From positions 1-16,601 of the forward strand of contig JAZRWA010000051.1 of assembly GCA_045599485.1 (NCBI GenBank): a DNA stretch of 16,601 nucleotides. Direction: 5' to 3'. The translations under genes and the position numbers were made by a program. The notes beneath the pieces are model-generated. The model was not told the DNA's origin, searched no databases, and saw only the letters and a program-made list of their open reading frames with translations. Of this stretch, positions 5,592-5,834 are shown piece by piece. The first letter of the stretch is position 1, and every line of letters starts with the position of its first letter. The DNA comes from Clostridia bacterium. Lineage in GTDB: Bacteria > Bacillota > Clostridia > Christensenellales > Aristaeellaceae.

Positions 5592-5834
5592 TCAACTGAT
5601 CTTATGCAATTTTCCGTACAGGTGGACCAGTCCGGTCCGATGCACCCAGAACACCTGCGCCCGCTCAAAGTGCAGCGCATTTCCGATATCTTCCCACGAC
5701 CGTCTGTTCCAGTACTTTTCCTCCAGGATGATGCGCTACCGCTGATCTTCCAGCTTATCAGGCATCAGCACGGCATCCTCTCTTTTTTCAGCAAGCGTAT
5801 TGGCATACTCTGCATCACATGCTATCATACTCAT
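5592..5834 (-). CDS. Small sigma-70 region-4-like / phage-ICE-type transcriptional regulator with one in-frame TAG (5736-5738); start uncertain
   Basis: Reading past the TAG gives ...MPDKLEDQR*RIILEEKYWNRRSWEDIGNALHFERAQVFWVHRTGLVHLYGKLHKIS, an HTH typical of region-4-like regulators, ending at TGA (5592-5594) before a terminator. No clear RBS at ATG 5834; the track ORF extends to 5963. Confidence 0.55.

Follow-up and report, generated by a model that had tools for sequence, protein, structure and literature searches.

The window (the whole stretch of DNA that was analysed, 16,601 nucleotides) contains an islet of 44-48% GC over positions ~4500-6500, compared with 55-61% GC in its flanks, in which a toxin-antitoxin pair, a divergent module of small proteins and a short minus-strand open reading frame (ORF) with one in-frame TAG lie next to a tRNA-Leu gene (Table 1). 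The ORF starts at ATG 5834-5832, meets its TAG at 5738-5736 and closes at TGA 5594-5592, which is followed by a second TGA; its joined translation reads MSMIACDAEYANTLAEKREDAVLMPDKLEDQR-TAG-RIILEEKYWNRRSWEDIGNALHFERAQVFWVHRTGLVHLYGKLHKIS. The predicted product includes the stretch LEDQRERIILEEK, and the HTH peptide RIILEEKYWNRRSWEDIGNALHFERAQVFWVHRTGLVHLYGKL comes directly after the TAG. A first-pass annotation of this DNA had described an in-frame TAG with the HTH wholly behind it, a TGA closing the frame just before a terminator, and an interruption by amber codons only. Translation confirmed the TAG and the position of the HTH, and folding confirmed the hairpin at 5583-5556 (-22.5 kcal/mol, z = -4.7, 0/200 shuffles as stable), which runs into UUUUUG. 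The single TAG is likewise the only interruption, as the frame has neither TAA nor TGA and is gapless in a codon alignment with its nearest homologue, the protein P0002 of metagenome contig L003.

Table 1 Features of the low-GC islet and of the minus-strand ORF within it, with L003 denoting the related metagenome contig.
Feature	Position	Strand	Basis or comment
tRNA-Leu(UAA)	4422..4506	plus	ARAGORN and Rfam; borders the low-GC islet
HTH_3 (HigA-like) antitoxin gene	4836..5129	minus	Pfam HTH_3, E = 2e-14; start overlaps toxin stop
Gp49/HigB-like toxin gene	5122..5502	minus	Pfam PF05973, E = 3e-17
Intrinsic terminator hairpin and U-run	5556..5583	minus	Directly 3' of the ORF's TGA
80-codon ORF and TGA stop	5592..5834	minus	Sigma-region-4-like C-terminal part of a phage late activator gene (DUF1492/LtrB family)
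Segment homologous to 3' half of intact L003 gene	5595..5800	minus	~94% nucleotide identity, ungapped
In-frame TAG, codon 33 of the ORF	5736..5738	minus	Orthologous codon in L003 is GAG (Glu)
11 non-homologous leading codons (MSMIACDAEYA)	5801..5834	minus	Junction; 5' half of gene replaced
Divergent module: 43-aa and 32-aa membrane peptides, then 78-aa RHH-like protein	5854..6386	plus	ORFs; abuts the truncation point

The toxin gene probably starts at M7 (5484), with a GGAGGA Shine-Dalgarno sequence, and its promoter (5531-5503, scoring 11/12) overlaps a palindrome with 14-nt arms at 5500-5527. On the plus strand, the 43-aa peptide is basic with a transmembrane segment and matches phrog_738 (E = 1.4e-5), the 32-aa peptide is hydrophobic with an AGGAGG ribosome-binding site at 6060, and the RHH-like protein matches phrog_13890 (E = 3.5e-4). 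DNA searches of 16 genus genomes gave no match to 5854-6386. Matches to the islet in genus genomes were limited to the tRNA and short pieces, and the contig of the closest relative ends before the islet. Within the islet there was no integrase, and a search for an att repeat of the tRNA-Leu 3' end returned only short, unconvincing repeats. Two perfect palindromic, terminator-like hairpins lie 3' of the tRNA-Leu on the plus strand, at 4506-4551 (19-nt arms) and 4653-4680 (14-nt arms), with no credible ORF between them. The islet appears to be a mosaic remnant of a mobile element next to tRNA-Leu, and the higBA-like toxin-antitoxin pair probably keeps it in the genome.

We assessed family membership with the joined protein, which matches phrog_36 (transcriptional regulator, E = 1.4e-8) over residues 14-77, across the TAG. 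Against Pfam DUF1492 (PF07374) it reached 12.4 bits, short of the 21.5-bit gathering threshold and limited to positions 43-94 of the 100-position profile; its score against RinA (TIGR01636) was 13.8 bits, below the cutoff of 31.9, and no match to the ArpU model was reported at E ≤ 1 in NCBIfam. The single real relative among 5.8 billion proteins searched was P0002 (called as 134 aa; contig ena:ERZ27247129:k141_1139457), with 84% amino acid identity solely between ORF residues 12-80 and P0002 residues 66-134, ungapped. P0002 exceeds the PF07374 threshold (28.8 against 21.5 bits, profile positions 2-95) and matches phrog_36 over its full length (2.4e-19). DUF1492 corresponds to LtrB, family III of a superfamily Ltr that also includes RinA, ArpU, LtrA and LtrC, and one DUF1492/LtrB member activates terS/late transcription (Quiles-Puchalt et al. 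2013, PMC3753634). The earlier lead to a sigma-region-4-like regulator of ArpU/RinA type was near the mark; the exact family is LtrB/DUF1492, a sister of RinA and ArpU whose own models the ORF does not reach. A profile built from 13 family members matched sigma region 4 of FliA (6pmi_F residues 176-236, E = 0.003), SigA and SigF (sigma-4 domain 8jzt), all weakly (E 0.003-0.02), while the N-terminal half of the profile matched coiled coils only. A single-sequence AlphaFold model of the 146-aa form of P0002 (pLDDT 82, pTM 0.50) showed no more than two long helices and was set aside as no guide to the fold.

The ORF is the 5'-truncated 3' half of an LtrB/DUF1492 gene, a fragment of a family member and not a full member, because DNA homology stops at 5800 and full-length homologues carry an N-terminal half. 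The blastn match between L003 2117-2477 and window 5800-5427 ends abruptly at that position, a genome search with P0002 aligned window 5595-5801 to query residues 66-134 of 134, and the first 11 codons of the ORF are unrelated to the L003 sequence upstream of the breakpoint. The N-terminal half is present in all 12 usable homologues from relatives' genomes (141-170 aa), and of 35 phage records matching the 134-aa P0002, 26 cover at least 80% of the query. The public gene call for the L003 gene begins at TTG 1921, with an in-frame ATG at 1885, 12 codons upstream. This ATG overlaps the SSB stop and gives a 146-aa protein, whose N-terminus fits the family motif AKEYLSQAR..LD..I and is probably the correct one; relative to it, ~77 N-terminal residues are absent from the ORF. 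The ORF accordingly lacks the full DUF1492/LtrB architecture of an N-terminal helical half (AKEYLSQAR...LR motif) plus a sigma-4-like HTH in ~130-170 aa, and is not an intact regulator. The first-pass annotation had named two findings that would speak against its reading, unrelated sequences on the two sides of the TAG and a functional start behind it. Both flanks of the TAG fall within P0002 66-134 without a gap. No start codon 3' of the TAG keeps the HTH, since ATG is absent there and GTG first occurs within the HTH; translation beginning after the TAG was rejected on these grounds.

Protein searching with the ORF product returned just P0002 and the ORF's own call, and with P0002 as query it returned P0002 alone. 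Scans of the genome, viral and metagenome contig collections detected no further close copies of P0002, and exact-pattern scans around the TAG found no additional copy. The context of the gene on L003 (resolvase, SSB, ParB_N) and the phage matches point to phage or satellite-type elements rather than to the Tn916 Orf7 type.

The nearest homologue also informs on the residue at the TAG, which the first-pass annotation had proposed to read from relatives. In L003 the codon is GAG (Glu), and the 36 nt before and 57 nt after it are identical to the window. The column corresponds to the second E of the LPEREK motif of sigma 4.1 in the FliA alignment. Distant DUF1492 homologues are variable at this column (V, Q, L, C, S, A, Y, F) and are thus uninformative on the residue. 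From the comparison with L003, the TAG is a single G-to-T change of a GAG Glu codon.

Constraint on the ORF is relaxed. With TAG/GAG taken as synonymous, the 68 codons shared with L003 differ by nine non-synonymous and four synonymous changes (pN/pS = 0.65), and omega ≤ 0.1 was rejected (p = 0.001), while this estimate from 13 substitutions is not significantly different from 0.3 or 1. The adjacent antitoxin gene had a pN/pS of 0.08 against the same contig. Three of the changes affect conserved positions: L79P falls in a helix where 12/12 homologues have I, L or V, R117W lies in the recognition-helix region at a position with R in 10/12, and K73E replaces a basic residue (R/K) found in 8/12. 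P0002 keeps the family consensus at all three columns (79, 117 and 73), and the window copy does not. Neither ATG 5834 nor ATG 5828 has a Shine-Dalgarno sequence, unlike the toxin and antitoxin neighbours with their GGAGGA and AGGAG. The pN/pS value, the substitutions, the missing Shine-Dalgarno sequence and the lack of a start behind the TAG that would keep the HTH together indicate that the ORF is in all likelihood a relic in slow decay, presumably not expressed or not functional. Against a relic stand a frame that is open over 69 homologous codons and the retention of its own stop and terminator.

These retained features would suit a functional, sigma-region-4-only DNA-binding protein starting at ATG 5834 (80 aa) or ATG 5765 (57 aa), with TAG read as Glu, that was domesticated from LtrB as a repressor or anti-activator. 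Such a protein would be in keeping with the FliA alignment, in which the whole sigma-4-like module (4.1 helix and HTH) is kept, with a weak promoter-like site at 5848-5819, with a Shine-Dalgarno-like GAGAGGA stretch 11 nt upstream of ATG 5765 and with a pN/pS below 1. We nevertheless consider it unlikely, since L79P and R117W strike positions conserved in 10-12 of 12 homologues, the first two ATGs have no Shine-Dalgarno sequence and every usable homologue from relatives' genomes is full length; a protein search, three collection scans and two pattern scans found no second short form. A promoter-like site on the plus strand (5800-5828) overlies the junction of the ORF.

The truncation, the damaging substitutions and the relaxed constraint imply that gene-specific decay is occurring in the ORF. 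The first-pass annotation had attributed the TAG to a property of the host translation system, or of an element adapted to it, rather than to gene-specific decay. The host cause is supported by a release factor RF1 that was not found, a tRNA(CUA) and Glu-biased TAG columns, as set out below, whereas the absence of decay is contradicted by the truncation and relaxed constraint. The ORF itself is weak evidence in this matter, as it alone cannot tell a silent GAG-to-TAG change from a nonsense mutation in a dead gene.

We then considered TAG usage in the window and in its genome (G000). One TAG by itself allows no comparison with chance. The window contains seven in-frame TAGs in four genes, and none of its 16 genes ends in TAG. 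Genome-wide, the median distance to the next TAA or TGA was 112 codons after TAGs with coding sequence upstream, and the sequence after them was mostly coding-like, compared with 35-36 codons after TAA or TGA. A crude codon-score estimate gave ~165 in-frame TAGs and ~200 terminator-like TAGs without a clearly coding frame after them genome-wide, figures that are confounded by adjacent same-frame genes and C-terminal TAGs, and we relied on the distance measure instead. Genes with in-frame TAGs include rpoD, encoding the primary sigma factor (G000:C56:35330-36436; one TAG, KRQVxDGEAAK, where x is TAG), and a tyrosine recombinase domain (G000:C56:31533-32087; two TAGs).

To assess the residue inserted at TAG, frames with a TAG were aligned with 400 kb of a genome from the same order, yielding 30 clean columns. 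Glu was the commonest residue in these columns (10/31 counted, background 7.4%, p = 5e-5), and log-likelihoods over the 30 columns were -72.3 for E, -80.0 for Q and -81.6 for K. A 536-aa HExxH protease with two TAGs contributed no columns, as no homologue was found in 60 relatives. In the DUF6273 repeat proteins of the window (11211-13421 and 10266-11009, minus strand), paralogous repeats have Q, or Q/E, opposite two TAGs (DVQEGKAL vs DLxDDKAL; NTQDKVF/DTEDKVF vs NTxDKVF). These alignments are the main local hint that TAG might be Gln rather than Glu.

Release factors and tRNAs were compared across 61 genomes, namely G000 and 60 relatives, of which G001 is the closest. RF1 scored above the cutoff in 55/61 genomes, including 14/16 of the others in the same genus. 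In G000, RF2 was found and the RF1 model gave an RF2 cross-match only; this pattern was confined to G000 and G001, and the incomplete genome G018 gave no match at all. The lack of RF1 is not proven at the completeness of G000 (82%) and G001 (74%), though it is common to both genomes and co-occurs with a tRNA of anticodon CUA. The one such tRNA in G000 (C50:8748-8823, ARAGORN) is 100% identical to that in G001 (C117:5836-5911), and it occurs in exactly these 2 of the 17 genus genomes. Its flanks are chromosomal, with ABC-transporter and two-component genes, and not those of a prophage. On one side of the tRNA in G000 is a membrane-protein gene, on the other an OmpR-type response regulator with its histidine kinase, and the kinase gene has in-frame TAGs. 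The tRNA has a D arm of tRNA-Glu(CUC) type and shares 50 of 76 positions with tRNA-Glu(CUC), compared with 40-43 with the two tRNA-Gln, from which we infer that the tRNA is charged with Glu. DUF1492 homologues in three RF1-containing species of the genus (L015 in G014, L016 in G010 and L017 in G011) end in TAG, as the standard code expects. On these genome comparisons, the recoding appears confined to a sub-lineage of the genus.

The alignments and the shape of the tRNA make it very probable that TAG stands for Glu. Glutamine or another residue would be in line with the two DUF6273 TAGs that align with Q in paralogues, with Q being second-best over the 30 columns and with gut phages, in which the known TAG recoding is to Gln. 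Read-through as such a residue is, however, very unlikely in our view, given that Glu fits the 30 columns 7.7 log-likelihood units better than Gln, that the tRNA is closer to tRNA-Glu in its D arm and shared positions, and that both mobile-element TAGs, that of the ORF and one described below, are GAG or GAA in homologues 84-94% identical.

A host-level reassignment, by the same genomic comparisons, appears well supported as the cause of the in-frame TAG. Should TAG instead be an ordinary stop genome-wide, the ORF would be a pseudogene broken by a nonsense mutation, with an amber pattern due to decay, mis-assembly or contamination. The truncated state and relaxed constraint of the ORF would agree with this, as would the ~200 TAGs without a clearly coding frame after them, and RF1 could sit in the gap of a metagenome-assembled genome that is 82% complete. 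We regard this as very unlikely, because it fits neither the contrast between seven in-frame TAGs and no TAG-terminated gene among the 16 of the window, nor the distances and coding scores after TAG, which are sharply unlike those after TAA or TGA, nor the enrichment of Glu in TAG columns, nor the restriction of tRNA(CUA) and missing RF1 to the same two genus genomes. It is also at odds with the strong purifying selection seen downstream of a TAG in the resolvase gene of L003.

Contig L003 carries, in order, a DUF6273 gene, a resolvase, SSB, LtrB, an HTH antitoxin whose toxin is deleted, and ParB_N, and represents a fuller version of the window islet in a different arrangement; the toxin core at window 5155-5426 is absent from it. 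None of its seven genes ends in TAG. Its chromosomal flank matches G000 best and G001 next, with hardly a match in the RF1-containing genomes of the genus. The serine resolvase (859-1419) is intact but for a TAG at codon 54, in the catalytic domain, where Gin has K and gamma-delta resolvase E in the aligned column. Homologues of the resolvase with 85-94% identity number in the thousands; all are ~186 aa long and come from ordinary genomes. Of the 120 homologues listed, 102 have A at column 54, and E stands there in the nearest clade (FIREGD; P0006, 94%, and P0007, 93%), in which the codon is GAG on three contigs and GAA on one. The resolvase had a pN/pS of 0.04-0.10 against its nearest homologues, and downstream of the TAG pN was 0.025 and pS 0.53; the excess of pS over pN there indicates that the region after the TAG is kept by selection. 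To judge from these comparisons, the resolvase would need TAG to be read as Glu, and both TAGs of the element family appear to stand for Glu codons of close homologues. The element evidently came from standard-code bacteria and later gained TAG sense codons. The first-pass statement that a mobile element shows the same amber pattern as the chromosomal genes is therefore borne out through the L003 resolvase, and not as it was originally based, on the ORF.

Taken as a whole, the explanation that we find probable is that the ORF is an LtrB relic whose TAG is a tolerated GAG-to-TAG change in a host that decodes TAG as Glu. A rearrangement at ~5800 would have removed the ~77 N-terminal codons, encoding the helical, coiled-coil-like half, and left the sigma-region-4-like HTH half with the gene's own terminator in a small degraded islet by tRNA-Leu, which the intact higBA-like pair would retain. 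One G-to-T change would then have turned GAG into TAG, to be decoded by the chromosomal Glu-like tRNA(CUA) with no RF1 competing. If TAG is decoded as Glu, the change would be effectively synonymous, and ribosomes on the frame would reach TGA 5594-5592. In a non-functional fragment the TAG would be tolerated rather than selected.

A wider proposal, which we hold to be about evenly poised between right and wrong, is that the element was imported from standard-code gut Clostridia and became locked to the code of a TAG = Glu lineage, as Glu codons turned into TAG at resolvase codon 54 and at codon 33 of the LtrB remnant, such that its genes would work only in a recoded host. If so, the altered code would make gene flow one-way, like a valve, with DNA coming in but not usefully going out, and DNA from standard-code neighbours would drift into the code of the host. 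As a prophage-type relic the ORF is ordinary, and its value lies in the comparison that it opened: two near-identical orthologue pairs in one element family, with GAG or GAA in one copy and TAG in the other. This mobile-element evidence is independent of the housekeeping-gene alignments and supports a small Clostridia lineage with TAG = Glu. If the reassignment is real, it would be a bacterial genetic code for which we found no description: no report of a TAG-to-Glu code in bacteria came up, and none is listed in a 2026 screen of ~2.7 million assemblies. The mobile-element comparison also bears on whether altered codes cut lineages off from horizontal gene transfer, and on recoding engineered as a 'firewall'. 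What is new here is the code context and the code-adapted mobile element; stop-codon reassignment in general is known, and the LtrB relic is ordinary.

Compared with known systems, the toxin-antitoxin pair resembles HigB/HigA-type (Gp49/HTH_3) modules on prophage remnants in having the toxin first, a stop and a start that overlap and an operator palindrome within the promoter, and it bears on the persistence of the islet, not on the TAG. With the LtrB family, the ORF shares a homologous C-terminal sigma-4-like HTH half (phrog_36; 84% identity to a PF07374 member), and its phage and prophage relatives are annotated as transcriptional regulator or sigma-70. It differs in retaining just the C-terminal ~69 of ~146 residues, with a TAG inside the gene and non-conservative changes at conserved positions, and in its location. 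An LtrB gene would be expected at the end of the early module, directly upstream of terS and the late operon; the ORF is followed by the terminator, the higBA-like pair and tRNA-Leu, and no terminase or portal gene was found in the window or genome. The family profile aligns with region 4 of sigma-70 factors (FliA, SigF) over the 4.1 helix and the 4.2 HTH, while the match is weak and the ORF has neither region 2 nor region 3 and is not a sigma factor. Known reassignments of stop codons in bacteria and phages (UGA = Trp in code 4, UGA = Gly in code 25, TAG = Gln in gut phages) share with the present case the use of a stop codon as sense, the loss of a release factor, the gain of a cognate tRNA and mobile DNA that shares the code; the present case differs in that TAG is reassigned on a bacterial chromosome and that its apparent meaning is Glu.
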